A DNA stretch of 64,000 nucleotides from Oscillospiraceae bacterium (GTDB lineage Bacteria; Bacillota; Clostridia; Oscillospirales; Oscillospiraceae). The notes below the pieces were generated by a model that was not told the origin of the DNA, ran no database searches, and saw nothing but the letters and a program-made list of their open reading frames with translations. The position numbers and the translations under genes were made by a program. The stretch covers positions 2,129-66,128 of the forward strand of contig JAFXXH010000017.1 of the NCBI GenBank assembly GCA_017542425.1, given 5' to 3'. Of this stretch, positions 19,805 through 64,000 are shown one piece after another. The stretch's first letter is position 1. Each line of letters opens with the position of its first letter.

Positions 19805-19929
19805 GGCTTTTCCCCCTCCCCGGCGGATCTCGGCGCGCTCCGCGTCGGGCGCACAGGCAAAAAGGCACAAATCCACGGACCGAGGGCAAAAAAAGTCTGG
19901 CATTTCCCGCCAAAAATCGCAAATTAGGC

Positions 19930-19957
19930 TTGCCTTTCCGAAATCGTGTATTAAAAT
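19930..19957 (+). promoter_or_regulatory. candidate sigma-A promoter of ackA
   Basis: TTGCCT-16 nt-TAAAAT, about 70 nt upstream of the ackA ATG. Confidence 0.4.
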
Positions 19958-20025: not shown

Positions 20026-21225
20026 ATGAAGATTCTTGTGATCAACGCGGGCAGCTCCTCTCTGAAGTATCAGCTCATCGACATGGACGGCGAGGTGCTG
20101 CTGGCCAAGGGCCTGTGCGAGCGCATCGGCATCGACGGCAAGTTCACCTACAAGCCCCAGGTGGAGGGCAAGGCGAAAAAGGACGCGGTGGACGTGGCCA
20201 TGCCCAGCCACGGCGAGGCCATCCAGACCGTGCTGGAAGCCCTGGCCGACCCGGTCAACGGCGTGGTGAAGAGCATGGACGAGATCGACGCGGTGGGTCA
20301 TCGCGTGGTCCACGGCGGCCGGGCCTTCACCGAGAGCTGCCTGATCAACGCCGAGCGCAAGGAAGCCATCAAGAAGTGCTTTCCCCTGGCCCCCCTGCAC
20401 AACCCGGCCAACCTGCTGGGCATCGAGGCCTGCGAGAAGGTCATGCCCGGCAAGCCCCAGGTGGCCGTGTTCGACACCGCGTTCCACATGACCATGCCCG
20501 CCGCGGCCTACATCTACGCCATCCCCTATGCGTACTACGAGGACGACGACGTGCGCCGCTACGGCTTCCACGGCACCAGCCACCGCTACGTCTCCGCCCG
20601 CTGCCGCGAGTTGCTGGGCAACCCGGAGCACAGCAAGATCATCTCCTGCCACCTGGGCAACGGTTCCTCCCTGGCCGCCGTCGTGGACGGCAAGGTGGTG
20701 GACACCACCATGGGCCTTGGGCCTCTGGCCGGCGTCCCCATGGGCACCCGCTGCGGCGACATCGACGCCACCATTCTGGAGTACCTGATGGGCCAGCACG
20801 GCTATGACATGAAGGAAATGATGAACATCCTCAACAAGAAGAGCGGCGTTCTGGGTATCTCCGGCGTGTCCAGCGACTTCCGCGATTTGGAAGCCGCCGC
20901 CAAGGAGGGCAACGAGCGCGCTCAGCTGGCCCTGGACAAGTTCCACTATGAGGTCAAGAAGGACATCGGCGCTTACGCGGCCGCCATGGGCGGCGTGGAC
21001 GCCATCGTCTTCACCGCCGGTGTGGGCGAGAACGGCGCGGGCAACCGTGCCGCCATCTGCGCGGGTCTGGAGTACCTGGGCGTGAAGATCTGCCCGGACT
21101 GCAACGCCCAGCGCGCCGACGAGCATCTGATCAGCACCGACGACAGCCCGGTGAAGGTCTTCGTCATCGCCACCAACGAGGAACTGATGATCGCCCGCGA
21201 CACCAAGGAGATCGTCAGCAAGTAA
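20026..21225 (+). CDS. ackA: acetate kinase
   Basis: MKILVINAGSSSLKYQL, HRVVHGG, FHGTSH and the C-terminal EELMIARDT are classic AckA motifs. Confidence 0.97.
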   Translation: MKILVINAGSSSLKYQLIDMDGEVLLAKGLCERIGIDGKFTYKPQVEGKAKKDAVDVAMPSHGEAIQTVLEALADPVNGVVKSMDEIDAVGHRVVHGGRAFTESCLINAERKEAIKKCFPLAPLHNPANLLGIEACEKVMPGKPQVAVFDTAFHMTMPAAAYIYAIPYAYYEDDDVRRYGFHGTSHRYVSARCRELLGNPEHSKIISCHLGNGSSLAAVVDGKVVDTTMGLGPLAGVPMGTRCGDIDATILEYLMGQHGYDMKEMMNILNKKSGVLGISGVSSDFRDLEAAAKEGNERAQLALDKFHYEVKKDIGAYAAAMGGVDAIVFTAGVGENGAGNRAAICAGLEYLGVKICPDCNAQRADEHLISTDDSPVKVFVIATNEELMIARDTKEIVSK

Positions 21226-21292: not shown

Positions 21293-21302
21293 CATGCCCG
21301 GT

Positions 21303-22391
21303 TCAGGCGGGATAGCGGGTCCAGACGTAGTCGGCCTGCATGATCTGCTGGCGCGTCAATGTCCGTCCCCAGTGGACGGAGGAATTGTAGTTCCCCTCGG
21401 CGATCACCACATGGTCGTCGTGGATCTCCAAGATGATGACGGTATGGGTGTCGCCGTTGATGCGCGGCATATCCCCCACGCGCAGATCTTCATAGGCGAA
21501 ATCGCCCCGCTCCAGCGTCCGCAGCGGCAGCTCCCCGAAGGCGGCGCTGCTGACCCGGAAGGCAAAGGCCACGCAGCCCATGCCGGTGAAGCTGAACTGC
21601 CGGGTCACGCCCTCCCACACTTCCTCGTAGTGCAGCGTGTACTCGTCCTCGTTGGTCCAGCGCAGCCCCTCCGGCAGCTCCTCCTTCATGGCAATCAGCT
21701 TCGCGTAGACCGTCTCCTGGTCGTAGGGGTCCTCCGCCGGGGTCTGGGCCGGGGACAGCGCCGCGTCATACTGCGCCTGGGTGAAGACGCCTTCGGCGAT
21801 CAGCTTCTCGGCCAGGGTCTCGTCGTCCCCCTTCAGGGGCGTGCGCAGGGCGCTGAAGCTGACGGCGGCCACATGGGCGCGCAGGAACGGGGCCTCGGCG
21901 AAGCGCGCTCCCTCGCTCGTCAGCCCGATTTCGTCGGAAAATTCCCAGGCCGCGTCCCAGCGGAAGTCCGTGGCGCTGTCATAGCCCAGGGCGCGAAGTA
22001 CAAAGGTGAGGTACTGAGAGGCGGTGATCTGCCTGTCGCCGCTGAAAGTGGTCTCCCCCGTACCGGCGGTCAGGCCGTTGGCGTAGGCATAGCCCACATA
22101 GGGCCGCGCCCATTCCGCCACGTCGGAAAAGGCGTTTTCCCAGCTCCCGGTTCGGGCCTCGCCCTCCTTCCCCAGCAGGCGCACCAGCATGACCAGCGCC
22201 TCATACCGGGTCGGAGCGCGGTCCAGCTCAAAGACGGGCTGCCCCTCCGCGTCGGTCCCGGTACCCTGGAACAGACCCAGGGCATACAGCGCGTCGGCGG
22301 CCTCGCGCCCGGCGTCGTCGGCGGCAAAGACGGCGCTCCCAAGAGAAAACAGCAGCGCCAGCGCCAGGAACAGAGACAACAGTTTTTTCAT
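21303..22391 (-). CDS. SLH-domain surface protein with a C-terminal papain-like (NlpC/P60- or CHAP-like) Cys-His domain
   Basis: Signal peptide MKKLLSLFLALALLFSLGSAVFA. SLH-type segments include AADALYALGLFQGTG and RYEALVMLVRLLG. The C-terminus carries GMGCVAFA ... DTHTVIIL ... AEGNY, a candidate Cys/His catalytic pair. Confidence 0.8.
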   Translation of the reverse strand: MKKLLSLFLALALLFSLGSAVFAADDAGREAADALYALGLFQGTGTDAEGQPVFELDRAPTRYEALVMLVRLLGKEGEARTGSWENAFSDVAEWARPYVGYAYANGLTAGTGETTFSGDRQITASQYLTFVLRALGYDSATDFRWDAAWEFSDEIGLTSEGARFAEAPFLRAHVAAVSFSALRTPLKGDDETLAEKLIAEGVFTQAQYDAALSPAQTPAEDPYDQETVYAKLIAMKEELPEGLRWTNEDEYTLHYEEVWEGVTRQFSFTGMGCVAFAFRVSSAAFGELPLRTLERGDFAYEDLRVGDMPRINGDTHTVIILEIHDDHVVIAEGNYNSSVHWGRTLTRQQIMQADYVWTRYPA

Positions 22392-22416
22392 TGGATTCTC
22401 CCTCTTTTCTATCTTT

Positions 22417-22761
22417 TCATTCATCCAGTTGCTCTAAACAGTATGCTTTCAGCGTGGGAATATCTCGCTGAACCGTATTCCATACGATTTCCAGACGGAT
22501 GCTTCCATAGTGATGCGCGACAATGTTCCGCATTCCCTTCATCTGGCTCCAATCCATCGTATCGGCGGATGCTGCGCGAATCTCCGGTGAGAGTTGCCCC
22601 GAAAGCTCGCCAATTTGGAGAAGATAAAAACAAATCAAATCATGGTACGCCTTATCAGAGTGGAAGGATTGAAAATCGTCTCCAAACCTTGCAACGCTGT
22701 CCTCAATGCTTTCGCAGTACTCCAAAATGTGTTCCAGCCTCTGCATATCACGCGGCAGCAT
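22417..22761 (-). CDS. hepT: HepT-like (DUF86) ribonuclease toxin, type VII TA system
   Basis: Rx4HxY motif present as MRNIVAHHY. It is 114 aa and overlaps the upstream nucleotidyltransferase gene by 14 nt. Confidence 0.9.
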   Translation of the reverse strand: MLPRDMQRLEHILEYCESIEDSVARFGDDFQSFHSDKAYHDLICFYLLQIGELSGQLSPEIRAASADTMDWSQMKGMRNIVAHHYGSIRLEIVWNTVQRDIPTLKAYCLEQLDE

Positions 22762-23077
22762 AGATCATCATCCTTTCCCGTTTGACCGCCTCCCGAAAAT
22801 GAATCTGGCTGCGGCGATTTGTCGGCTCTTCCATCGAGTCCAGCGTAACCAGGTCTATCGTGGTTTCCAACGCGCTTTCCAGGGCGCTGTACAGCCCGCC
22901 CAACCGAAACAAGCTGTCAATCGCTGTTCCTGAGAGATCGACCAGCAGGTCTACATCGCTCTCCGCAGTGGCCTCACCCCTGGCGTAAGAGCCAAAGAGG
23001 TAGACCGCCGCAAGGCCGTATTGCCGTGCAACAGGCGTAATGCGGCGTTTGATTTCCTCCACCGTATAGGGCAGCAT
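22748..23077 (-). CDS. mntA: MntA-type minimal nucleotidyltransferase antitoxin
   Basis: LFGSYARGEATAESDVDLLV (GSx10DxD) motif. It is 109 aa and sits immediately upstream of hepT. Confidence 0.9.
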   Translation of the reverse strand: MLPYTVEEIKRRITPVARQYGLAAVYLFGSYARGEATAESDVDLLVDLSGTAIDSLFRLGGLYSALESALETTIDLVTLDSMEEPTNRRSQIHFREAVKRERMMIYAAA

Positions 23078-54672: not shown

Positions 54673-57021
54673 TTACTTCACGGTCAGCTTCTGGGCCTCC
54701 TTGTAGGGCTTGAAGAGCTGCCACAGGAGCAGACCCAGCGCAATCAGCGCCAGAATCAGGCCGACGACGTTCACGCCGCCCACGAACACCCGGCCGATCT
54801 GCCAGACCAGGAAGGCGATCACCCAGGCAAAGCCGCACTGGTAGCCGATGGCGAACCAGGTCCACTTGCGGCTGTTCATCTCCCGCCTGATCGCGCCGAT
54901 GGCCGCGAAACAGGGGGCGCAGAGCAGGTTGAAAATCAGGAAGGCATAGGCGGCAAGTCTGCCGTGGCCGCCGGAGATGGCGTTGAAGTCCTCCGCCACG
55001 TTCTCCCAGATCTGGTCGCCGTTTTCCTCCAGCTCCTCCAGGATGGGTTCGCCGGTCTCCTCGTCAAAGAGCGGTTCGCCGGTCTCCTCGTCCACGGCCT
55101 GCTCGGCCCTGGCGTCGAAGTTGTACATGATTCCGAAGTTGGCCACGACCTCCTCCTTTGCCACCAGGCCGGTGACCGTGGCGGCAGTGGGCTTCCAGTC
55201 GCCGAAGCCCAGGGGCTTGAAGACGATGGAGACGGGCTGGGCCACGCGGGCCAGGATGGAATCGTCCATCGGCTCCACCTCGTCCTCGGAGATGCCCATA
55301 CGCTCGGCCACGATGGCCACATATTCGTCGGTGACCAGGCTGTCATCCTCATAGAGCTCGTCCACCATGCCGAATCTGCCGTTGACGGAGCCGAAGCTGG
55401 TCAGGAACCAGATCACAATGGAGGAGACCACGATGACGGTCCCGGCGCGCTTGATAAAGCTCCAGCCGCGCTCCCAGGTGCCGCGCAGGACGTTGCCCCA
55501 GGCGGGGGCGTGGTAGGCGGGCAGCTCCATGACGAAGGGGGCGGGGTCCCCGGCAAAGCGCTTCGTCTTCTTCAGCATGATACCGGAGATCACAATGGCA
55601 GCCACGCCGATGAAGTAGGCGGAGGTGGCGACCAGGGTGCTGCCGCCGAACAGCGCGCCCGCGATCAGGCCGACGATGGGCATTTTCGCCCCGCAGGGCA
55701 TGAAGGTGGTGGTCATGATGGTCATGCGGCGGTCACGCTCGTTTTCAATCGTGCGGGAGGCCATGACGCCGGGGATGCCGCAGCCGGTACCCACCAGCAT
55801 GGGGATGAAGCTCTTGCCGCTCAGGCCGAAGCGGCGGAAGATGCGGTCCATGATGAAGGCGATGCGCGCCATGTAGCCGCAGTCCTCCAGCAGGCAAAGC
55901 ATCAGGAACAGCACCAGCATCTGGGGCACGAAGCCCAACACCGCGCCCACGCCGGCCAGGATGCCGTCGGAGATCAGACCCACCAGCCAGGGGGCGGCGT
56001 TCCAGCTCTCCAGGATGGCGCGGGAGCCGTCGGTCAGCCAGGCCCCGCCCAGCACGTCGTTGGCCCAGTCGGTCAGGAAGGTGCCGATGGAAATGCCGCC
56101 GTCGGCGATGGAGGTGCCCATGGACAGGGCGTAGACCAGGAACATGACTCCGATGAAAATCGGCAGCGCCAGGATGCGGTTGGTGACGATCTTGTCGATC
56201 CGGTCGGAGGTACTCTGTTTGGTCCTGTTCTTTTTCTGATAGCACCCGCGCATCAGGCCCGCGATGTAGATGTAGCGCTCGTTGGTAATGATGCTCTCCG
56301 CGTCGTCGTCCAGCTCCCGCTCCGCCGCGGCGATATCCTGTTCGATATGTGCTTTGATCCCGTCGCTGAGGGCCAGCTTGCTCTGGACCTTTTCATCCCG
56401 CTCGAAGAGCTTGACGGCATACCAGCGCTGGCGCTCCTCCGGCATGTTGTGGACCGTAATCTCCTCGATGTGGGCCAGGGCGTGCTCCACCACGCCGGAA
56501 AAGCTGTGCTGGGGCACGGTCCTCGGCCCCTGGGCGGCCTCCACGCAGGCGCGGACCGCCGCGTCGATCCCCTCGCCCTTGAGCGCGGAGATCTCAACAA
56601 TCCGGCAACCCAGGGCGCGGCCCAGTTCCTCCGTGTGGATGGTGTCGCCGGACTTGCGCACCAGGTCCATCATGTTCAGGGCAATGACCACGGGGATGCC
56701 GATCTCCACCAGTTGGGTGGTCAGATAGAGGTTGCGCTCCAGATTCGTGGCGTCGACGATGTTCAGCACCACGTCGGGCTGTTCGTCGATCAGATAGTTC
56801 CGGGCCACGACCTCCTCCAGCGTGTAAGGGGACAGAGAGTAGATGCCGGGTAGGTCCGTGACGGTCACGTCCTTCTGGCCGCGCACGCGGCCCTCCTTCT
56901 TCTCCACCGTCACGCCGGGCCAGTTGCCCACATACTGCTGGGTCCCGGTCAGCGCGTTGAACAGCGTCGTCTTGCCGCAGTTGGGGTTGCCGGCAAGGGC
57001 GATGCGAATTCCAGTTTTCAT
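54673..57021 (-). CDS. feoB: ferrous iron transporter FeoB
   Basis: IALAGNPNCGKTTLFNALTG G1 motif, DLPGIYSL, NMMD, and a large gate-motif-containing polytopic membrane domain. Confidence 0.97.
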   Translation of the reverse strand: MKTGIRIALAGNPNCGKTTLFNALTGTQQYVGNWPGVTVEKKEGRVRGQKDVTVTDLPGIYSLSPYTLEEVVARNYLIDEQPDVVLNIVDATNLERNLYLTTQLVEIGIPVVIALNMMDLVRKSGDTIHTEELGRALGCRIVEISALKGEGIDAAVRACVEAAQGPRTVPQHSFSGVVEHALAHIEEITVHNMPEERQRWYAVKLFERDEKVQSKLALSDGIKAHIEQDIAAAERELDDDAESIITNERYIYIAGLMRGCYQKKNRTKQSTSDRIDKIVTNRILALPIFIGVMFLVYALSMGTSIADGGISIGTFLTDWANDVLGGAWLTDGSRAILESWNAAPWLVGLISDGILAGVGAVLGFVPQMLVLFLMLCLLEDCGYMARIAFIMDRIFRRFGLSGKSFIPMLVGTGCGIPGVMASRTIENERDRRMTIMTTTFMPCGAKMPIVGLIAGALFGGSTLVATSAYFIGVAAIVISGIMLKKTKRFAGDPAPFVMELPAYHAPAWGNVLRGTWERGWSFIKRAGTVIVVSSIVIWFLTSFGSVNGRFGMVDELYEDDSLVTDEYVAIVAERMGISEDEVEPMDDSILARVAQPVSIVFKPLGFGDWKPTAATVTGLVAKEEVVANFGIMYNFDARAEQAVDEETGEPLFDEETGEPILEELEENGDQIWENVAEDFNAISGGHGRLAAYAFLIFNLLCAPCFAAIGAIRREMNSRKWTWFAIGYQCGFAWVIAFLVWQIGRVFVGGVNVVGLILALIALGLLLWQLFKPYKEAQKLTVK

Positions 57022-57254
57022 ATGCCGCTCCTTTCCTCCACTTCGATCATTTCCGCGTCGGCCTTGCGGATGGACAGCTCATAGCCCCGCACGTTCACCT
57101 CCACCGGGTCGCCCAGCGGGGCCAGCTTGCGGACGTAGATCTCTACGCCCTTCGTAACGCCCATGTCCATGATCCGCCGCTTGACCGCGCCCGCGCCGTG
57201 CAGCTTCACGACCCGGACGGTCTCGCCGACTTTCGCGTCTCTGAGTGTTTTCAT
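57018..57254 (-). CDS. feoA: FeoA domain protein
   Basis: LRDAKVGETVRVVKLHGAGAVKRRIMDMGVTKGVEIYVRKLAPLGDPVEV is an SH3-like FeoA domain. AAAGGAG RBS. It overlaps feoB by 4 nt. Confidence 0.9.
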   Translation of the reverse strand: MKTLRDAKVGETVRVVKLHGAGAVKRRIMDMGVTKGVEIYVRKLAPLGDPVEVNVRGYELSIRKADAEMIEVEERSGI

Positions 57255-57284
57255 CCTCATCGCTCCTTTTCGATTCAAATTGGA

Positions 57285-57497
57285 TCAGACCATGATCTTC
57301 CCGGCCATTTCGCGGCTGAGGGCCACGCGGGACTCCTTGACCTTGACGATCAGGTTCCCGCCGATGGTATTCAGCACCGTGACGGTCCCGCCGACGACAA
57401 AGCCCATGTCCTCCAGGTGCTTTTTCAGCTCCGGCGTCCCGCCCAGGCGCAGGATGACGGCTTCCTCCCCCGCCCCCGACAGATACAGCGGCATCAT
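57285..57497 (-). CDS. feoA: FeoA domain protein (second copy)
   Basis: MMPLYLSGAGEEAVILRLGGTPELKKHLEDMGFVVGGTVTVLNTIGGNLIVKVKESRVAL, with a [14 protein letters not shown]. Confidence 0.88.
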   Translation of the reverse strand: MMPLYLSGAGEEAVILRLGGTPELKKHLEDMGFVVGGTVTVLNTIGGNLIVKVKESRVALSREMAGKIMV

Positions 57498-57562
57498 CGC
57501 TTTTCCCCCCTCCTTGCACCGTGCCACAGAATTAAATGAAACTAACTTGCGATTCGGCAAAA

Positions 57563-57580
57563 GGTTAGGTTCTCCTAACC
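57563..57580. promoter_or_regulatory. DtxR-type iron-box-like operator in the feoA 5' region
   Basis: Perfect inverted repeat GGTTAGG-TTCT-CCTAACC. It resembles the DtxR/IdeR consensus TTAGGTTAGCCTAACCTAA and starts 8 nt downstream of the -10. Confidence 0.65.
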
Positions 57581-57616: not shown

Positions 57617-57692
57617 GAGCGAACTTCCCTGCACTTTGATTTTTCTTGCTTTTTGCATATTTTTATGGTAATCTTTTCAGCAGGTGATGAAA

Positions 57693-58061
57693 ATGACGAT
57701 CCATGAATCCGCAGAAAACTATCTGGAAGCCATGCTGATGCTCAAGGAGGAGCGGGGCTACATCCGCTCCATCGACGTGGCGGAAAAGCTGGGCGTAACC
57801 AAGCCCAGCGTCAGCTACGCAACCAAACGCCTGCGGGAGAGCGGCTATATCACGCTGGACCCGGCGGGGATGATCGTGCTGCTCCCTCCGGGGCTGGAGA
57901 TCGCGGAGCGGATTTACGAGCGCCACAAGCTCCTGACCGAACTGTTCATCGGCCTGGGCGTCAACCCGGAGACCGCCCGGCAGGACGCCTGCAAGATCGA
58001 ACACGACCTGAGCGTGGAGACCTTCGAGGCCATTCGCAGACATGCCCAAATGTACCGCTGA
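57693..58061 (+). CDS. DtxR/MntR family metal-dependent transcriptional repressor (no SH3-like C-domain)
   Basis: SAENYLEAMLMLKEERGYIRSIDVAEKLGVTKPSVSYATKRLRESGYI is a winged HTH. ERHKLLTELF...DACKIEHDLS is the dimerisation/metal-site region. The start was set at the ATG 5 nt after AGGTGA. Confidence 0.9.
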   Translation: MTIHESAENYLEAMLMLKEERGYIRSIDVAEKLGVTKPSVSYATKRLRESGYITLDPAGMIVLLPPGLEIAERIYERHKLLTELFIGLGVNPETARQDACKIEHDLSVETFEAIRRHAQMYR

Positions 58062-58163: not shown

Positions 58164-58192
58164 TATCATCAGCAATTAGATAAGCCTAACTT
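58164..58192 (+). promoter_or_regulatory. -10 element (TATCAT) plus an iron-box-like operator upstream of the HMA gene
   Basis: TATCAT at 58164-58169, then AATTAGATAAGCCTAACTT at 58174-58192 (imperfect TTAG..CTAA palindrome). The geometry matches that at feoA. Confidence 0.5.
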
Positions 58193-58222
58193 CTGGAAAC
58201 GAGCTTTGGAAAGGTGAGACAC

Positions 58223-58474
58223 ATGATCAAGACCACAGTGAAAATCGACGGCATGATGTGCCCCATGTGCGAGGCGCATATCAGCGAGGCGATCCGAAAG
58301 GCGATCCCCTCCGCCAGGCAAGTCAGCGCCAACCGGCGCAAGGGGGAGGCGGTGTTCCTGACGGAACAGGCCGTGGACGGAGCGCTGCTGCGACAGGCCA
58401 TTGACGCCACAGGCTACCGCTGCCTGGGCGTGGAATCGGCGCCCCACGAGAAGAAGCGCTGGTTTCAAAAATAA
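58223..58474 (+). CDS. heavy-metal-associated (HMA, CopZ-like) domain protein
   Basis: MIKTTVKIDGMMCPMCEAHISEAI carries the GMxCxxC metal-binding motif. It is about 83 aa with a ferredoxin-like beta-alpha-beta-beta-alpha-beta pattern. Confidence 0.88.
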   Translation: MIKTTVKIDGMMCPMCEAHISEAIRKAIPSARQVSANRRKGEAVFLTEQAVDGALLRQAIDATGYRCLGVESAPHEKKRWFQK

Positions 58475-58544: not shown

Positions 58545-60104
58545 TTATCTCCTGGCCTGGCTCAAAGCGGCGCGGACGGCGGCGCGCAGGCCCTCGGAAG
58601 AATAGGTCGCGCCGGAAACGCCGTCCACATTCGGCGACTGCGCGGACAGCATGGCGGCGATCATCCGCGCACCGTCTGCGCCGGGGTCGAAGTAATCCAC
58701 GTCATCCTTGAACGCAGTGATGCGGATGTCCACAATGCGGTCGTCCCGGATGGTCACGGATACGGCCACGTCTCCGGCCGTACCCAGGTTTCCGACGCCG
58801 GATCCGCTGTAGGTCCCGTCCTGATAGACCCGGACAGGCGTGGGCTCGGGGGTGGGCACCGGAGTCGGCTCCGGCGTAGGTTCGGGCGTAGGTTCCGGAG
58901 TCGGCTCCGGGGTGGGTTCCGGGGTGGGCTGCTGCGTCGGTTCCGGCGTCGGTTCCGGCGTCGGGGTGGCTTGCGCCGTGGGCTGCGGCGTCGGTTCCGG
59001 CGTCGGCTTCGGTGCCGGTTTCGCCGTGGGTTCGGGCGCGGCTGCGGTCTCCGGTTCCGGCGTCGGCGCTGACGTGGCCGTGGGTTCCGGTTCCGGCTGC
59101 GCTTCTCCCTTTGCTTCCGGGTCCGGGGATGGGCTTGAGACGGACGCGGTGGGCGTCACTTCCGGCGTCAAGTCGGGCTCCGGCGTGGACGACGCGTCCG
59201 TGCTTTCCGGCGCGGGCGGTGGTGACGGCAGAGACTCCGTTGCTTCCGAGGCCTCGGACGCCGAGAGCGGTTCCGTGGAGACGGCCGCTGCGGAAGCCCC
59301 TTCCCCGTCCTGCGCCTCTCGCGCTGCGGAAACCGCCAGCGTCAATGCCGCAGCGAGCAGCAGCGCAAAGAAAAGGGCGACCAGCTGGCGGCGCGCCAGC
59401 CCCGTTTCGCTCTGCCGACGGCGGGCCAGCGCTTTCAGAATCCGGCAGGCGGCGTAAGCGACGAAGATCGCGGTGTAGACGAACACGGTCAGTCCGTAAC
59501 CGAGACGGCCCCGCAGCGCGTTGGGGATGGTCAGCAGCAGGATGTGGAGGCAAAGCAGGGCATAGAACAGATAGGCCCAGCGCTGCAGGCGTTTCCAGGC
59601 TTTTGGCCGCATCTTTTTTCGGACAGCAGGGAAGCTGGTGATCCACAGCGGCAGCATCACCAGATCCATGACGACGGAGCAGAGGGCCGCCAGCAGCGTC
59701 GCTGTGGGCAGGCTGGCGGCGTCCGTAAACAGCAGGACGAAATAGGTCTTGCCGTACGCCACGTTGTGGGCAAGGGTGAAAATCCCGGCCAGAATGGACA
59801 GAGGCCCGCGGACGGGCATCAGCGTTCGCGCTCCCCTGGAACCGTTGGGGAAGGCTCCGGCCACCATCACCAGCACAAACAGCGCACCCGCCAGCGCGCC
59901 CCGGGCGAAAATGGGCCAGATCCAGCTGTTGACAAAGGCCGGGAAGCGGACCCCGGCAAAGGCGCAGACCACGACGGCAAGGGACAGCAGCGCGGCACAG
60001 AGATAAAACGGCCCCGGCGCGGTCCGCAGCTGCTTGCCCAGCAGTAGCACCAGCAGCAGCGCCAGGGCGAGAGAGATCAGAAAAACCAAAGACGGCACCT
60101 CCAT
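58545..60104 (-). CDS. ferric-reductase-like transmembrane domain fused via a Pro/Thr/Glu linker to an extracytosolic FMN_bind domain
   Basis: The N-terminal ~230 aa form six TM helices with His in TM segments (FTLAHNVAYG, ALLCLHILLL), as in YedZ/MsrQ/FRD proteins. A ~170-aa (PEPT)n-rich linker follows. The C-terminus GTYSGSGVG...VDGVSGATYSSEG is an FMN_bind domain with the canonical flavinylation site. The start may instead be the TTG at 60089, which follows GGAGG. Confidence 0.88.
   Translation of the reverse strand: MEVPSLVFLISLALALLLVLLLGKQLRTAPGPFYLCAALLSLAVVVCAFAGVRFPAFVNSWIWPIFARGALAGALFVLVMVAGAFPNGSRGARTLMPVRGPLSILAGIFTLAHNVAYGKTYFVLLFTDAASLPTATLLAALCSVVMDLVMLPLWITSFPAVRKKMRPKAWKRLQRWAYLFYALLCLHILLLTIPNALRGRLGYGLTVFVYTAIFVAYAACRILKALARRRQSETGLARRQLVALFFALLLAAALTLAVSAAREAQDGEGASAAAVSTEPLSASEASEATESLPSPPPAPESTDASSTPEPDLTPEVTPTASVSSPSPDPEAKGEAQPEPEPTATSAPTPEPETAAAPEPTAKPAPKPTPEPTPQPTAQATPTPEPTPEPTQQPTPEPTPEPTPEPTPEPTPEPTPVPTPEPTPVRVYQDGTYSGSGVGNLGTAGDVAVSVTIRDDRIVDIRITAFKDDVDYFDPGADGARMIAAMLSAQSPNVDGVSGATYSSEGLRAAVRAALSQARR
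58832..59260 (-). repeat. in-frame low-complexity tandem repeat encoding the (PEPT)n / Pro-Thr-Glu-Ala linker
   Basis: Plus strand shows reiterated GGTTCCGGCGTCGG / GGCTCCGG units. Translated on the minus strand this gives PTPEPTPEPTPEPTPEPTPEPTPVPTPEPTP and degenerate copies. Confidence 0.9.
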
Positions 60105-60112
60105 GTTCCAGG

Positions 60113-60153
60113 ATAAAAAACACCGGGGACGCCCGACGGGCGGACGACCCCGG
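60113..60153 (-). terminator. rho-independent terminator after the SLH surface-protein gene
   Basis: Minus strand reads CCGGGGTCGTCCGCCCGTCGGGCGTCCCCGG followed by TGTTTTTTAT. Confidence 0.8.
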
Positions 60154-60176: not shown

Positions 60177-62255
60177 TCAGCTTTGTGGATCAGACCGCGC
60201 CGTTGCATAGAGCAGGGACACGATCTCGGCGCGGGTGTAGGGCGTCTCGGCCCGGAAGCTGCTTCCGGCTTCGATCAGGCCCTTCTCCGCCGCCCAGGAG
60301 GCGGCGTCACGGTACCAGGCCTCGGGCTTCACATCGTCAAAGGCCTTTTGCGCGGCGGGGGCGGGCCGTCCTTCGGCTTTCCAGAGGACGCCGATGATCT
60401 GTGCGCGGTCCACGGTCTGCATGGGGCTGAAGCGGTCCGCGCCCGTGCCGTCGATGATGCCGTTTTCAACCGCCCAGAGGACCGCTTTACAATACCAGTC
60501 GTCCTCCCGGATGTCCGTGAAGGGGGTTTCGACGGATTCAGGCTGCGGCTGTCCGGCGCGTTTCCAGAGGAAGGTGACCAGAGTCGCCCGGTTTACGGTC
60601 AGTTCCGGGGAGAAGGTCCCGTTTCCGGTTCCGCTGGTGACGCGGTTTTTCCTGGCCCAGATCAGCGCCTCGGCATAGTCGGCGTCCTTCGGCACATCGT
60701 AGTATCCGGTGGCCCCCAGGTCCGCGATGGCGATCTGCACCGGGAAATCCAGCACGGCAGACGGGGTGTAGTAGCGGATGTTGGTAATCGTTTTTCCGTC
60801 GATGGCCGCCAGCGGCTCGTCCAGGTTCCAACCCAGCTCCGTGGCCCGCCAGATGTTCGTCACATGGCCCATGCCGTATTTCGCGCCGTCCTCGGTGGTC
60901 AGCACCACAGCGCTGACGGCGTCGCCTTTGGCGATCCCCTCCGTGCCTTCCAGTACCATTTCAATGGAAGTGTGCCGTCCGTTGTAGGTCACGGTGGCGC
61001 TGACACCTTCCACCGTTGCGGCGCGCCCGCCCACTGCGGAGAAGCGGAAGCCGCCGTCCTCCGCCACGGAGAGCGTCTTGTACTTTGCGGGCTTCTCCGA
61101 CAGCGCATACCAGGCATGGTCCGGGGCTTCAAACAGAGAATCCCTGCCCGCATAGGTCGCGGTATTCGTCTGGCCGCGGGCGCTGGTGGTGATCTCCACG
61201 CTGCGTGCGTCGGTGACCTCCAGCGCAGCATCCAGCATATCCAGATCCGGGACGAACACAGGATAGCTGACGCCGTCTACGCCGTCGCCCTCCGCGCTGA
61301 CATGATAGGAGCCGGAGGCCAGGCCTCCGTTGCTCCGTTTGTTTTTGGTGGCCGCGCTGACCGCGTCCGGCGCGTCCGCTTCGCCCAACTCTGCGGCGTA
61401 GAATTCGGCGTAGGGGATGTTCATTTGGACATAGCCTGCCTTACCGATGGTCAACTGAACCGGATAGTCCAGAATGGCGTCACGGGTATAGTATCGAATG
61501 TTGGTGAGCGTCTTTCCGGCGAGCCCTGCGGCCCCTTCGTCCAGGTTCCAGCCCAGCTGCGTCCCGCGCCAGATGTTATAAACGTGGCGCAGCCCGTATT
61601 GGCTGCCGTCGGAAGCCGTCAGCACCACGCCGCTGACAACGGTATCCGCCGCGATGGCGGCTGTGTTTTCCAGAACGATTTCGATGTCTGTATGCCGTCC
61701 GCCCATCGTCAGCGTGGGGACGACGCCCTCCTGTGTGGAAGCCGCGCCGCGCACAGCGGAAAAGCGCAGCGCGCCGTTCGTGACGGAGAGTTCTTTGTAA
61801 CAGGCGGGCCTTTCTTTCAACACATAGTAGGAGTAGCTCGGAGCCTCAAACAACGCATCCGCGCCCTCATAGACGGTGGTTCTCTCCTGACCCCGGTTCA
61901 CGACGGTGATCTCCACGCGGGCCGTATCGTCCAGGCGGTTCAGCCCCGCCAGCGCCGCAGAGTCCTTGACAAGCACGGGATAGATGACGCCGCTGATGTC
62001 ACTGCCGTCAGCATTGACGTGGTAGGAGCCGCCGGCCAGCGTACCCGTCCTGGGCTTATTCAGCGTAGAGGAACTTACGGCGTCCACGGCCTTGTCCGTT
62101 TCGCCCAGTTCCGATGCATAAAAGTCGGCGTAGGGGATGTTCATCAGGACATAGGTCTCTTCCGCCGCCAGCGCCGCAGACGGCAGCGCCCCGATCAGCG
62201 TCAGCAGGCAGAGCAGCAGTCCCAGCGTTTGTCTGAGCTTTTTCACATTCATCAT
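60177..62255 (-). CDS. cell-wall-anchored (3x SLH) surface protein with two tandem copies of an unassigned ~240-aa domain
   Basis: Signal peptide LGLLLCLLTLIGALPSAALA. Copy A spans aa ~38-278 and copy B aa ~279-519, sharing MNIPYA(D/E)FYA.ELGE, DAVS..T, SGSYHV, RHT.IE.VLE, NIWR.T.LGWNLDE and TNIRYYT. Three SLH modules lie at aa ~522-690. The start was set at ATGATG after GAGGTG. Confidence 0.88.
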   Translation of the reverse strand: MMNVKKLRQTLGLLLCLLTLIGALPSAALAAEETYVLMNIPYADFYASELGETDKAVDAVSSSTLNKPRTGTLAGGSYHVNADGSDISGVIYPVLVKDSAALAGLNRLDDTARVEITVVNRGQERTTVYEGADALFEAPSYSYYVLKERPACYKELSVTNGALRFSAVRGAASTQEGVVPTLTMGGRHTDIEIVLENTAAIAADTVVSGVVLTASDGSQYGLRHVYNIWRGTQLGWNLDEGAAGLAGKTLTNIRYYTRDAILDYPVQLTIGKAGYVQMNIPYAEFYAAELGEADAPDAVSAATKNKRSNGGLASGSYHVSAEGDGVDGVSYPVFVPDLDMLDAALEVTDARSVEITTSARGQTNTATYAGRDSLFEAPDHAWYALSEKPAKYKTLSVAEDGGFRFSAVGGRAATVEGVSATVTYNGRHTSIEMVLEGTEGIAKGDAVSAVVLTTEDGAKYGMGHVTNIWRATELGWNLDEPLAAIDGKTITNIRYYTPSAVLDFPVQIAIADLGATGYYDVPKDADYAEALIWARKNRVTSGTGNGTFSPELTVNRATLVTFLWKRAGQPQPESVETPFTDIREDDWYCKAVLWAVENGIIDGTGADRFSPMQTVDRAQIIGVLWKAEGRPAPAAQKAFDDVKPEAWYRDAASWAAEKGLIEAGSSFRAETPYTRAEIVSLLYATARSDPQS
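60711..62156 (-). repeat. internal tandem duplication (two ~720-nt domain-coding copies)
   Basis: The protein-level repeat described above gives copy A at about 61434-62156 and copy B at about 60711-61433. The copies have diverged (roughly half the residues identical by eye), so the duplication is not recent. Confidence 0.8.
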
Positions 62256-62287
62256 AACACCTCTCATTCTGGATTTGTTATCAGCCG

Positions 62288-62311
62288 CTAACGTTAGTTA
62301 GACTAATCTAA
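62288..62311. promoter_or_regulatory. iron-box-like operator(s) in the 5' region of the SLH surface-protein gene
   Basis: CTAACGTTAG is a perfect 10-bp palindrome. It overlaps TTAGTTAGACTAATCTAA, which is close to the DtxR consensus half-sites. The site lies about 16 nt downstream of the -10. Confidence 0.6.
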
Positions 62312-62328
62312 TCACGGCGACGTGTTGG

Positions 62329-62357
62329 AGTATAACAGCAACGCGCAGAAATGTCAA
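62329..62357 (-). promoter_or_regulatory. sigma-A promoter of the SLH surface-protein gene
   Basis: Minus strand reads TTGACA-17 nt-TATACT. Confidence 0.6.
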
Positions 62358-62373: not shown

Positions 62374-62403
62374 TTGACAAACAAAACACCGCGGATTTAC
62401 AAT
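62374..62403 (+). promoter_or_regulatory. sigma-A promoter of apbE
   Basis: TTGACA-18 nt-TACAAT, arranged back-to-back with the divergent promoter (the -35 boxes are 16 nt apart). Confidence 0.6.
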
Positions 62404-62416
62404 AAATCATACGGGA

Positions 62417-62434
62417 AGTTAGTTTTTTCTAACT
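62417..62434. promoter_or_regulatory. iron-box-like operator upstream of apbE
   Basis: Perfect inverted repeat AGTTAG-TTTTTT-CTAACT between the -10 and the RBS. Confidence 0.6.
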
Positions 62435-62456
62435 CTTGAAAAAAGGAGGGGATGGA

Positions 62457-63491
62457 ATGCGACGGGCCGCCTGCCTTCTCTGTCTCAGCTTTCTGCTGCT
62501 GAGCGGCTGCGGCGGGAACTCCGCTTCCACCGCGCCCACGGAGCGGGAGCGCAGTTTCTTCGCCATGGATACCTATATGAGCATTCGCGCCTTTGGGGCG
62601 GAGGAAGCGCTGCTGGAGCGTGCGGAGGCCGCAGTCACGGATCTGGAGCGGCGCATCTCCGTCACGGACCCGGACAGCCAGATCGCCGCGCTGAACCGCA
62701 ACGGGACGGGCACGCTGGACGCGGAGACGGCGGAGCTGCTGCGCCGGGGTCTCGCGCTCTGCGCGGAGACGGGCGGGGCGCTTGATCTCAGCGTCTATCC
62801 GGTGCTGCGGGCCTGGGGCTTCACCACAGGCGACTACCGCGTCCCCGCCCCGTCGGAGCTGGAAGCGCTGCTGACGCTGGTGGACCATCGCCGGGTGAAG
62901 CTGAACGAGGCCGGAACCGTGTCGCTTGACCCGGGGATGCAGCTCGACCTGGGCAGCGTGGCCAAGGGGTATGTGGGAGACAAGCTCTGCGCCCTGCTGC
63001 GCACCGGCGGCGTGAATAGCGCCCTGTTGGATCTGGGCGGGAACGTACAGGCGCTGGGCGGCAAGCCGGACGGAAGCGCCTGGCGCGTGGGCATCCGGGA
63101 CCCCCAGGGCGCGGGGCTGCTGGGCGTGGTCTCCGTCCGGGACTGTGCGGTGGTCACATCCGGCGGCTATGAGCGCTATTTCCTGGACGCGGACGGGACG
63201 GTCTATTGGCACATTCTGGACCCCGCCGACGGGATGCCCGCGAAAAACGGCCTGATCTCCGTCACCGTCGTGGGGACGGAGGGCCTTCTCTGCGACGCGC
63301 TCTCCACCGCGCTGTTCGTCATGGGCACGGAGCGGGCGGCGGACTACTGGCGCGCCCACGGGGACTTTGAACTGGCGCTGGTCACGGAGGACGGCAGACT
63401 GCTGCTGACGCCTGGCTTGGCGGAGGGTTTCACCCCGGCGGAGGGCCTGAACTATCGGATCGAGACGCTGGAGCGGGAGGGCGCGGCATGA
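62457..63491 (+). CDS. apbE: FAD:protein FMN transferase (ApbE family) lipoprotein
   Basis: Lipobox LLLSGCGG. ApbE motifs FAMDTY, DLGSVAKGY, TSGGYERYF, HILDP and [21 protein letters not shown] lies before the ATG at 62457; the track starts at an upstream TTG. Confidence 0.93.
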   Translation: MRRAACLLCLSFLLLSGCGGNSASTAPTERERSFFAMDTYMSIRAFGAEEALLERAEAAVTDLERRISVTDPDSQIAALNRNGTGTLDAETAELLRRGLALCAETGGALDLSVYPVLRAWGFTTGDYRVPAPSELEALLTLVDHRRVKLNEAGTVSLDPGMQLDLGSVAKGYVGDKLCALLRTGGVNSALLDLGGNVQALGGKPDGSAWRVGIRDPQGAGLLGVVSVRDCAVVTSGGYERYFLDADGTVYWHILDPADGMPAKNGLISVTVVGTEGLLCDALSTALFVMGTERAADYWRAHGDFELALVTEDGRLLLTPGLAEGFTPAEGLNYRIETLEREGAA

Positions 63492-64000
63492 CGAAGCGCA
63501 TCACCCACGCGGCGCTGCTCACGGCCCTGGCGCTGATCATCTTCGTGCTGGAGGCGCAGATCCCGCCGCCCGTCCCGATCCCCGGCCTCAAGCTGGGTCT
63601 GGCCAACATCATCACCGTGTACGCCATGTTCCGGCTTGGGCCAAAGGACACGCTGGCGATCCTGCTCTCGCGCATCTTCCTGGGCAGCGTGTTCGCGGGC
63701 GCTGTCAGCGCCATGCTGTTCTCTCTGGCGGGCGGGCTGCTGTGCTATCTGCTGATGCTGCCGCTGCGGCGGCTTCTGAGCCTGCGTCAGATCTGGGTCT
63801 GCGGCGTGTTGGGCGCGGTGGCGCACAACCTGGGCCAGACCGCCGCCGCGATTTTGATCTACCGCACGTTTGCCGTCGCCTTTTATCTCCCGGTGCTGCT
63901 GCTGAGCGCCGTCGTCACCGGGACCCTCACGGGGCTGAGCGCACAGTACGTCGTGCGCCGCATGGAGCAAAGGGAGCAGAACAGGTCGGACATGGAAAAA
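63488..64000 (+). CDS. Gx transporter family membrane protein (formerly 'heptaprenyl diphosphate synthase component I'-like); the 3' end is beyond the window
   Basis: Own translation: MTKRITHAALLTALALIIFVLEAQIPPPVPIPGLKLGLANIITVYAMF...GAVAHNLGQTAAA. The ATG overlaps the apbE stop (ATGA). There is no in-frame stop before 64000. Confidence 0.8.
   Translation, partial: MTKRITHAALLTALALIIFVLEAQIPPPVPIPGLKLGLANIITVYAMFRLGPKDTLAILLSRIFLGSVFAGAVSAMLFSLAGGLLCYLLMLPLRRLLSLRQIWVCGVLGAVAHNLGQTAAAILIYRTFAVAFYLPVLLLSAVVTGTLTGLSAQYVVRRMEQREQNRSDMEK

Follow-up and report, generated by a model that had tools for sequence, protein, structure and literature searches.

The 64,000-nucleotide stretch of an Oscillospiraceae bacterium analysed here (positions 2,129 to 66,128 of contig JAFXXH010000017.1; hereafter the window) carries on its reverse strand, at 60177–62267, a gene for a 696-residue protein made of a signal peptide, two repeats of an unnamed domain and three SLH modules. 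The repeat is a real, sizeable and unannotated family; its most conserved feature is a motif resembling the one at which the flavin transferase ApbE attaches flavin mononucleotide (FMN), and its one significant structural match is Tp47 of Treponema pallidum. We judge it somewhat probable that the window protein is an iron-starvation-induced, ApbE-flavinylated electron-transfer protein of the cell surface, probably a ferric reductase feeding the ferrous iron transporter FeoAB. We also put forward, tentatively and with chances close to but short of even, a wider proposal: the clostridial family and Tp47 may form one superfamily, an unrecognised class of ApbE/Ftp-flavinylated extracytoplasmic redox proteins with a dedicated haem-b FMN_bind membrane partner, which in Clostridia would serve reductive iron acquisition under iron starvation.

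The two repeats (copy 1, residues 36–275, 61443–62162; copy 2, residues 276–516, 60720–61442) are 58% identical over 240 residues (E 2e-93, pairwise alignment), and the repetition is also visible in the DNA of the gene as a period of 720 nt. The first-pass annotation of this DNA, made by eye, had described two copies of about 240 residues with a set of shared strings, and every one of those strings is found in the alignment. It had also reported a signal peptide and, after the two copies, three SLH modules. The modules, which anchor proteins to the cell wall, are recognised by Pfam at residues ~519–690 (PF00395, E 9.3e-24; 60198–60713), the Sec-type signal peptide was read by eye from the sequence (residues 1–34, ...LIGALPSAALA/AEE; 62166–62267), and together they indicate extracytosolic export. 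The true start is probably Met5 or Met6 (62255 or 62252), the former having been assumed from the outset, because a GAGGTG ribosome-binding site lies directly 5' of these two codons and P0001, a metagenomic homologue with 99% identity, has 691 residues. The motifs DAVSSST in copy 1 (residues 62–68, 62064–62084) and DAVSAAT in copy 2 (residues 301–307, 61347–61367) sit exactly at the positions first reported, with Thr68 (62064–62066) and Thr307 (61347–61349) as the predicted FMN acceptors. The repeat, which could not be assigned to a family by eye, matches no Pfam or NCBIfam model past threshold either; the sole Pfam hint is a sub-threshold match to PBP-Tp47_a of about 15 bits.

A word-indexed search returned 1,165 relatives of the repeat, and a HMMER profile search, exhaustive over 1.84 billion cluster representatives, gave 988 at E ≤ 1e-3, 802 at 1e-10 and 479 at 1e-30. 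The family comprises about 1,000 clusters at 50% identity, largely from gut and rumen Clostridia (Oscillospiraceae, Lachnospiraceae, Ruminococcus and others), with 338 confirmed matches among GTDB species representatives; cultured carriers include Coprococcus comes, Fusicatenibacter saccharivorans, Oliverpabstia intestinalis and Sarcina sp. DSM 11001. Of the 120 closest proteins, 31 have a single copy, 84 have two and 5 have three; the partner modules of the domain are SLH, choline-binding, LRR, Big_2, FN3, FIVAR, Shr-like HID and FMN_bind. The source names of these proteins refer to the anchors only, or read hypothetical. Apart from the motif, His83, His228, Trp233 and several tyrosines are near-invariant. 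In some proteins (P0200, P0240, P0250 and P0251) only the C-terminal part of the unit (profile positions ~101–239) is repeated, up to 8 times, so that part of the unit can occur independently of the N-terminus that bears the motif.

To measure how conserved the motif is, 446 distinct copies were aligned to the family profile. Of these, 440 have the motif Asp, which is preceded by Val in 365; it is followed by Ala in 360, then by V, F or I in 413, then by Thr (231) or Ser (194), and the position corresponding to the Ala of the ApbE motif is Ala in 408 and Ser in 31. The first-pass annotation had proposed to ask whether the acceptor threonine is invariant among homologues: the position is 98–99% conserved, with Thr in 438 copies and Ser in 4. 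The few copies in which the motif is wholly lost all belong to multi-copy proteins. The resulting family consensus, VDAV[S/T]SAT, is nearer to the ApbE motif than is DAVSSST or DAVSAAT of the window protein.

The 123 FMN_bind domains encoded in the same loci have the consensus [VI]Dx[VI]SGAT, in which D, A and T are invariant, and the family consensus differs from this same-genome standard solely at Gly. In these true FMN_bind domains Gly is itself replaced in 19 cases (~15%), by R (7), N (4), S (3), H (2) or E (2). When the two family profiles were compared with hhalign, just VDxVS[S/G]AT was aligned, in register, over 15 columns (E 0.001); with the similarity confined to the motif and no Pfam FMN_bind match on the repeat, we rejected the possibility that the repeat is a divergent FMN_bind domain. 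The ApbE acceptor motif is D-x-x-[S/T]-G-A-[S/T], and in a model substrate flavinylation falls to about 50% on replacement of Gly by Ala or of Ala by Val and is abolished when Thr becomes Ala (PMC12052999). As was pointed out at first reading, DAVSAAT deviates from the motif only by Gly to Ala, and DAVSSST at both the Gly and the Ala positions, each of which is Ser. Copy 2 (Thr307) is a credible flavinylation site and a better one than Thr68, to judge from its sequence, because Gly to Ala keeps about half of the flavinylation in the model substrate.

The gene for the modifying enzyme is at hand. An apbE gene had been noticed next door, and the open reading frame (ORF) at 62436–63491 on the forward strand, divergent from the target gene, indeed encodes an ApbE flavin transferase (E 4e-82) with a lipoprotein-type signal (LLSGC). 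We examined 78 species loci with flanks of up to 10 kb. Within this distance apbE is found in 29 loci, an FMN_bind ORF in 33 and one or the other in 41, and a single ORF combines the domain with FMN_bind in 21 loci; for a random 20-kb window, the expectation for apbE is about 1% if genomes are roughly assumed to carry some one to three copies of the gene. Eight loci (L014, L023, L030, L032, L045, L053, L060 and L077) have apbE but no FMN_bind in the flanks, and in seven of them apbE directly adjoins the family gene; in the domain proteins of these eight loci Pfam shows anchoring modules only and no FMN_bind. The smallest arrangement, in L077, is a pair consisting of apbE and a gene for a 402-residue protein (signal peptide, one domain, choline-binding repeats) set between ABC transporter, gltX and uvrD genes.

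In Coprococcus comes, one operon encodes ApbE, a protein with four FMN_bind domains, another with a single one, a NapH-like Fe-S protein, NusG_II, PF07456 and a 1,698-residue surface protein. The latter combines an FMN_bind-like site (DTKTGAT), two copies of our domain (DAVSSAT, DAFTSAT) and bona fide Tp47 domains A and C (E 5e-68 and 3e-75; DTVTRAT). A survey of flavinylation gene clusters had recorded 'large unannotated proteins' anchored by SLH, Rib, FIVAR or LysM modules and left these unassigned (PMC8238504).

NusG_II and PF07456 genes recur beside apbE in other loci (L068 5831–6760, L083 11679–12581, L061 13070–14013 and L073 2735–3873), and in L061 and L073 the pair is preceded by the operator described below. 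In the window, apbE is directly followed by a gene for a membrane protein of PF07456 (Hpre_diP_synt_I), truncated at the window end (63488–64000, forward strand), and there is no NusG_II gene. A role of the pair in supplying flavin to ApbE is our guess.

The structural relationship to Tp47 (TP0574; PDB 1O75; PF14889 and PF14888) comes from an AlphaFold2 model of copy 2, built on a 71-sequence alignment (pLDDT 92, pTM 0.90). Foldseek against the PDB gave one significant match, 1O75 (E 7.4e-5, probability 1.0, TM 0.49); the other matches, to Ig/FN3-like sandwiches, were non-significant (E above 0.01). In Tp47, the sequence YGYATLSYADYWAGELGQ...MFDAVSRATHGHG contains the strand-helix signature seen at the N-terminus of the repeat and, after it, the same motif, and the two families have in common the pattern Y-x-Y-x-x-L-x-Y-x-x-[FY]-[YW]-x-x-E and then DAV[S/T]xAT. 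Among 17 homologues of Tp47 there is no variation at D, V, R, T, H and G of the pattern D-x-V-[S/T]-R-A-T-x-x-H-G, and hhalign of both family profiles gives E 5.2e-5 and a probability of 67% over 45 columns, with the motifs in register. The Pfam model PF14889 scores 14.9–15.5 bits on the window repeats (E 0.013–0.019), under its gathering threshold of 25 bits, and sub-threshold matches occur in 6 of the 71 family members (best E 9e-4). Tp47 domain C (PF14888) was found neither in the window protein nor in the 71 family members. A profile search of PDB sequences missed 1O75, and hhalign of the family profile against the lone Tp47 sequence gave a weak, mis-registered alignment (E 0.004, probability 9%). 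The PDB profile search matched pterin dehydratases only, at chance level (E 0.008–0.04). These comparisons of sequence and predicted structure suggest that the repeat is a remote relative of Tp47, its membership of PF14889 not being established.

Differences between the two families are also clear. Tp47 has Arg at the Gly position where the clostridial family has Ser, and an insert of about 25–30 residues before the motif that the clostridial family lacks; it is a single-copy lipoprotein, whereas the window protein is SLH-anchored with tandem copies, although both are extracytoplasmic and both domain types co-occur in the C. comes protein. With an AlphaFold model of the N-terminal 138 residues alone (pLDDT 82, motif loop below 50), no PDB entry was matched significantly, Tp47 included, and the similarity to Tp47 therefore needs the whole 240-residue unit. 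The drop in loop confidence in this model suggests that the motif loop packs against the C-terminal half, and a motif module at the N-terminus and a sandwich at the C-terminus can only tentatively be told apart.

The gene neighbourhood of Tp47 points the same way. An FMN_bind protein is encoded immediately downstream of the Tp47-family gene in all five loci examined, and apbE is present in two of these clusters. In T. pallidum (L082 8001–10497), tp47 is followed by the gene for a 360-residue Ferric_reduct-like membrane protein with an FMN_bind domain, and a Clostridium-type contig (L083 8001–12581) encodes in succession a Tp47-like protein, the same membrane protein, ApbE, NusG_II and PF07456; the three further loci (L084–L086) have FMN_bind immediately downstream, and one of them also has apbE and a NapH-like gene. 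The membrane protein encoded next to the window gene is 39–41% identical to its T. pallidum and Clostridium-type counterparts (E 2e-37 and 2e-51), with both transmembrane histidines retained in all three. This orthology makes the window pair, the wall protein and the membrane protein, the counterpart of the tp47 gene pair. As minor details, the FMN_bind protein after the Tp47-family gene has a weak ferric-reductase-like match in three of the five loci, and the motif of the T. pallidum neighbour reads DVVSEAT.

The domain had initially been regarded as possibly a new flavinylated fold. Conservation of the motif and linkage to apbE support the flavinylation, whereas the novelty of the fold is reduced by the likely remote relationship to Tp47, the sole significant match of the Foldseek search against the PDB and itself tied to FMN_bind and ApbE genes. 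This kinship does not refute flavinylation, because the Tp47 family has the same motif and the same FMN_bind partner gene. Proteins of T. pallidum carrying a flavinylation motif were listed by Deka et al. (2015) as TP0171 and TP0572 only, not Tp47 (PMC4436053). TP0572 is most probably the membrane protein encoded next to tp47. We found no literature linking Tp47 or PF14889 to ApbE or flavin.

The partner in the window is a 519-residue membrane protein encoded on the reverse strand at 58545–60104, with an MsrQ/ferric-reductase-like transmembrane domain, a linker and a C-terminal FMN_bind domain; FMN_bind and apbE are both present in the cluster. The FMN_bind neighbour with DGVSGAT that had been recorded by eye is confirmed by Pfam, with the motif at residues 494–500 (58605–58625). 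The transmembrane domain contains only two histidines (H113 and H187), a single pair that would bind at most one bis-His haem. It has no Pfam match to PF01794 at E up to 0.1 and only weak NCBIfam matches, to MamZ (4e-7) and MsrQ (0.022); orthologues have weak precomputed PF01794 matches. The linker before FMN_bind, of about 195 residues, is rich in P (49), A (31), T (28) and E (25), and 12-nt periodic DNA repeats at 58813–59100 encode its PEPT-type units. Periodic arrays of this kind can differ in length among strains. A terminator-like hairpin with a T-run (60121–60138, reverse strand) lies within the 72 bp that separate the target gene from the membrane-protein gene. It is possibly a partial terminator, through which the membrane-protein gene could be transcribed less than the target gene; the promoter scan predicted no separate promoter for the membrane-protein gene.

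The third line of evidence concerns regulation. The target gene has a sigma-70-like promoter, TTGACA-17-TATACT (62329–62357, reverse strand, 11/12), and apbE another, TTGACA-18-TACAAT (62374–62403, forward strand, 11/12). Two sites of the type GTTAG-N6-CTAAC (62277–62292 and 62297–62312) lie downstream of the −10 hexamer of the target gene, and an exact site (62418–62433) lies between the apbE promoter and the apbE start. A further exact site (57564–57579) lies downstream of the promoter-like feoA −10 hexamer, between feoA and the gene for a DtxR-family metal-dependent repressor of 125 residues (57684–58061, forward strand), the candidate operator binder; the ferrous iron uptake genes themselves occupy 54673–57560 on the reverse strand (feoA 57285–57560, feoA 57018–57278, feoB 54673–57021). 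An operator-type site with one mismatch (58175–58190) is found just downstream of a promoter-like site of a gene for an 86-residue heavy-metal-associated (HMA) domain protein (58214–58474, forward strand). This gene, whose product resembles a metallochaperone and which has its own promoter-like and operator-type sites, is situated between the repressor and membrane-protein genes.

In the 64 kb of the window there are five GTTAG-N6-CTAAC sites with up to one mismatch, all in this locus, compared with 0.23 expected, and the region has four sigma-70-like promoters compared with 0.9 expected. At each of these four promoters an operator site follows the −10 hexamer at a distance of 5–40 bp, where a repressor would be well placed to act. 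The DtxR consensus is TTAGGTTAGCCTAACCTAA, and when the window was scored against it, four of the five best matches (14/19) lay in the intergenic regions of this locus. A 14/19 match at 19924–19942, upstream of the acetate kinase gene (20026–21225), lacks the GTTAG-N6-CTAAC core and is probably due to chance. In an alignment by eye with DtxR and MntR, the Cys-x-x-Glu-His of the window regulator matches the Fe-type Cys102, Glu105 and His106 of DtxR, which weakly suggests an Fe-type regulator.

The operator pattern was tested independently in 70 loci of other species, over 450 bp around the start of the family gene. Exact sites occur there at 1.52 per kb, as compared with 0.030 per kb elsewhere, an enrichment of about 50-fold; an exact site is present in 32 of the 70 loci and a site with up to one mismatch in 50, usually in two to four copies. 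Most of the remaining sites fall before apbE, FMN_bind or NusG_II-PF07456-apbE operons, before feoA and DtxR-like genes (L058, L041 and L007), and before DUF3793-flavodoxin-domain operons. In 15 of the 78 species (L035, L038, L043 (8860–12289), L046, L049–L051, L056–L059, L062, L063, L067 and L080) the family gene apparently shares an operon with DUF3793, short-chain flavodoxin or both, which directly precede it, and these 15 loci have no apbE or FMN_bind gene within 10 kb. Flavodoxin is the low-iron stand-in for ferredoxin. At the locus of P0061, too, neither apbE nor FMN_bind is found nearby, but three operator sites lie upstream of the family gene. The operator is apparently undescribed, no literature search having been aimed at the motif.

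On these grounds we propose the following model, in which covalent FMN, the direction of electron flow, iron as both signal and substrate, and DtxR as the binder are inferred. The target gene, apbE, the HMA gene and feoAAB would most likely be derepressed under iron starvation, because the same operator follows the promoter of each and a gene for a DtxR-type repressor lies among them. Once exported, the tethered FMN_bind domain and the wall-anchored protein would both be substrates of the ApbE lipoprotein, which would link FMN through a phosphoester to Thr68 and Thr307 in the VDAV[S/T]xAT loop of the wall-anchored protein. Electrons would leave the membrane via the b-haem of the MsrQ-like protein and pass to the flavin of its own FMN_bind domain, whose Pro/Thr-rich tether would be long enough to reach into the wall; from there they would be handed to the flavin or flavins of the SLH-anchored protein and finally to an extracellular acceptor. 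The linkage to feoAB and the regulon make Fe(III) the most likely acceptor, either free or on chelates or host proteins, and the Fe(II) produced would be taken up by FeoB. If the wider proposal is also true, the immunodominant syphilis antigen Tp47 would be a covalent flavoprotein and the terminal member of a small trans-envelope electron chain rather than a penicillin-binding protein, and the clostridial module would be the outermost part of an iron-starvation regulon that acts through the GTTAG-N6-CTAAC operator and serves reductive iron acquisition at the cell surface.

Several observations weigh against this model. At the Gly position the family has Ser in 366 of the 446 copies, Ala in 34, Thr in 30 and Gly in only 12. 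Copy 1 may be a weak or even poor site, because Ser replaces the Ala that is invariant in FMN_bind domains, and the motif loop is the least confident part of the AlphaFold2 model of copy 2 (pLDDT 61–75). A covalent flavin on the domain, or on Tp47, is a prediction from motif and linkage. In most of the loci concerned, the proximity of apbE could be explained by the co-encoded FMN_bind proteins, and about half of the loci have neither gene within 10 kb. As regards iron, responsiveness to the metal and binding of the operator by DtxR are likewise predictions, because the operator pattern was derived from the window sites, its half-sites match DtxR/IdeR boxes with a different spacing, and a DtxR-like gene is nearby in only 7 of the 78 loci. 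Iron genes stand beside the family gene only in the window and a few relatives, and the Tp47-family loci, unlike the window gene, have no operator.

The best surviving alternative, which we nevertheless consider unlikely, is that the protein is an unflavinylated surface receptor for haem, iron chelates or a host iron protein, induced by iron starvation, in which the conserved loop and the His, Tyr and Trp residues bind the ligand and ApbE serves the nearby FMN_bind proteins alone; these might even reduce the bound ligand. A haem- or iron-binding receptor had been named as an alternative in the first-pass annotation, and the iron-related role is partly borne out by the position of the gene in an apparent iron-type regulon, while no NEAT or other haem-binding Pfam match was found. 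The nearly invariant His83, His228, Trp233 and tyrosines would suit ligand binding, FMN_bind proteins are encoded at most apbE-linked loci, and many family members have Shr-like haemoglobin-interacting domains (HID, PF07550) or LRR, reminiscent of the streptococcal Shr/NEAT haem receptors, which are also iron-regulated, wall-associated and modular. Unlike these receptors, however, the family has no NEAT domain; its core is an ApbE-type motif, and its genes show linkage to apbE. Agreement between the loop and the ApbE recognition sequence covers the invariant FMN_bind positions, the residues before Asp among them, which a ligand-binding role would not predict. In the eight loci with apbE and without FMN_bind, ApbE has no other recognisable substrate nearby. 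The His and Trp of the C-terminal half are not common to the Tp47 family, whereas the motif is. An NCBIfam match named 'NEAT' covers the SLH region only, and a NEAT-type receptor was rejected.

A rather improbable variant accepts flavinylation of the domain and assigns it to iron sparing: when iron is limiting, a surface flavin carrier would replace an iron-containing one, much as flavodoxin stands in for ferredoxin, and would serve general extracellular electron transfer or respiration. The operon linkage to flavodoxin in 15 of the 78 loci, the NapH-like and multi-FMN_bind electron-transfer operons linked to the family in Lachnospiraceae, and the scarcity of iron transporters, which most loci lack nearby, are in line with this variant. 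The window and L058 genes, by contrast, are grouped with feoAB and a DtxR-like regulator under the same operator, and the partner membrane protein appears to belong to the ferric-reductase/MsrQ-like class.

We consider it very improbable that the protein is a structural or adhesive one built of Ig-like modules, with the motif kept for folding only. The Foldseek matches besides Tp47 are Ig/FN3-like sandwiches, and Big_2, FN3, FIVAR and LRR modules occur in family members, but the sandwich matches are non-significant, and a near-invariant enzyme recognition motif, linkage to apbE and a metal-type regulon would be unexpected in an adhesin. Hardly credible at all is the reading of the protein as a cell-wall enzyme like Tp47 that binds penicillin or modifies peptidoglycan. 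The Foldseek match to Tp47 (annotated as a penicillin-binding protein), the sub-threshold PBP-Tp47_a matches and the SLH-mediated wall localisation might point to it. It is not supported: the 696-residue protein has no SxxK, SxN or K[T/S]G motif and no domain C, the core shared with Tp47 is the flavinylation-like loop, and the Tp47 family is itself tied to FMN_bind and ApbE genes.

With respect to known ApbE substrates, the family resembles those with FMN_bind domains (PF04205; Listeria PplA, NqrC, RnfG and multi-flavinylated surface proteins) in its extracytoplasmic location, tandem copies, [VI]Dx[VI][ST]xAT loop, wall-anchoring modules and apbE in the cluster (PMC8238504, PMC11334425). It differs in that the unit is twice as long (~240 residues), Ser in place of Gly is the family norm, profile similarity is limited to an 8-residue motif, and no FMN_bind structure is among the Foldseek matches listed. 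DUF2271, DUF3570, Flavodoxin_4 and FMN reductase have been shown to be ApbE substrates outside FMN_bind (PMC8238504, PMC11334425); traced by apbE clustering and a [S/T]GA[S/T]-like motif, they set a precedent for the ApbE motif in unrelated folds, and our repeat has a different fold and belongs to a different family. The repeat family is not among the domains reported in these two studies.

The membrane partner can be compared with the MsrQ-like flavinylation-associated systems that have been proposed as assimilatory iron reductases (PMC8238504), which the window locus resembles in its FMN_bind domain, its apbE gene, a linked ferrous iron transporter and a membrane protein that is probably a haem protein of the ferric-reductase/MsrQ class. 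The published systems, for the most part actinobacterial, are linked to VIT1 and often have an NAD-binding domain, whereas the window transporter is FeoAB; the window proteins are distinguished by the single His pair, the long Pro/Thr linker to FMN_bind and an additional wall-anchored predicted flavoprotein.

Taken together, the results support the original flavinylation interpretation. If it is true, the family would be a further class of ApbE substrate, of about 1,000 clusters and common in human-gut and rumen Clostridia; to our knowledge, only a handful of ApbE substrate domains have been recognised. ApbE-dependent flavinylation is increasingly seen as the flavin equivalent of extracellular electron transfer by cytochromes, and the present model would give a role to the large unannotated wall-anchored proteins of flavinylation gene clusters, would tie flavin electron transfer to iron starvation through a conserved operator, and suggests how thick-walled strict anaerobes could reduce extracellular iron for uptake by Feo. 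Tp47 is the classic serodiagnostic antigen of syphilis, whose physiological function has been unsettled since its structure was solved, and the relationship described here makes that function testable by a direct and cheap experiment.

Elsewhere in the window, a 489-residue ORF at 21294–22763 has no Pfam match, and the G+C content is 0.57 at 22–24 kb as compared with about 0.65 in the remainder.

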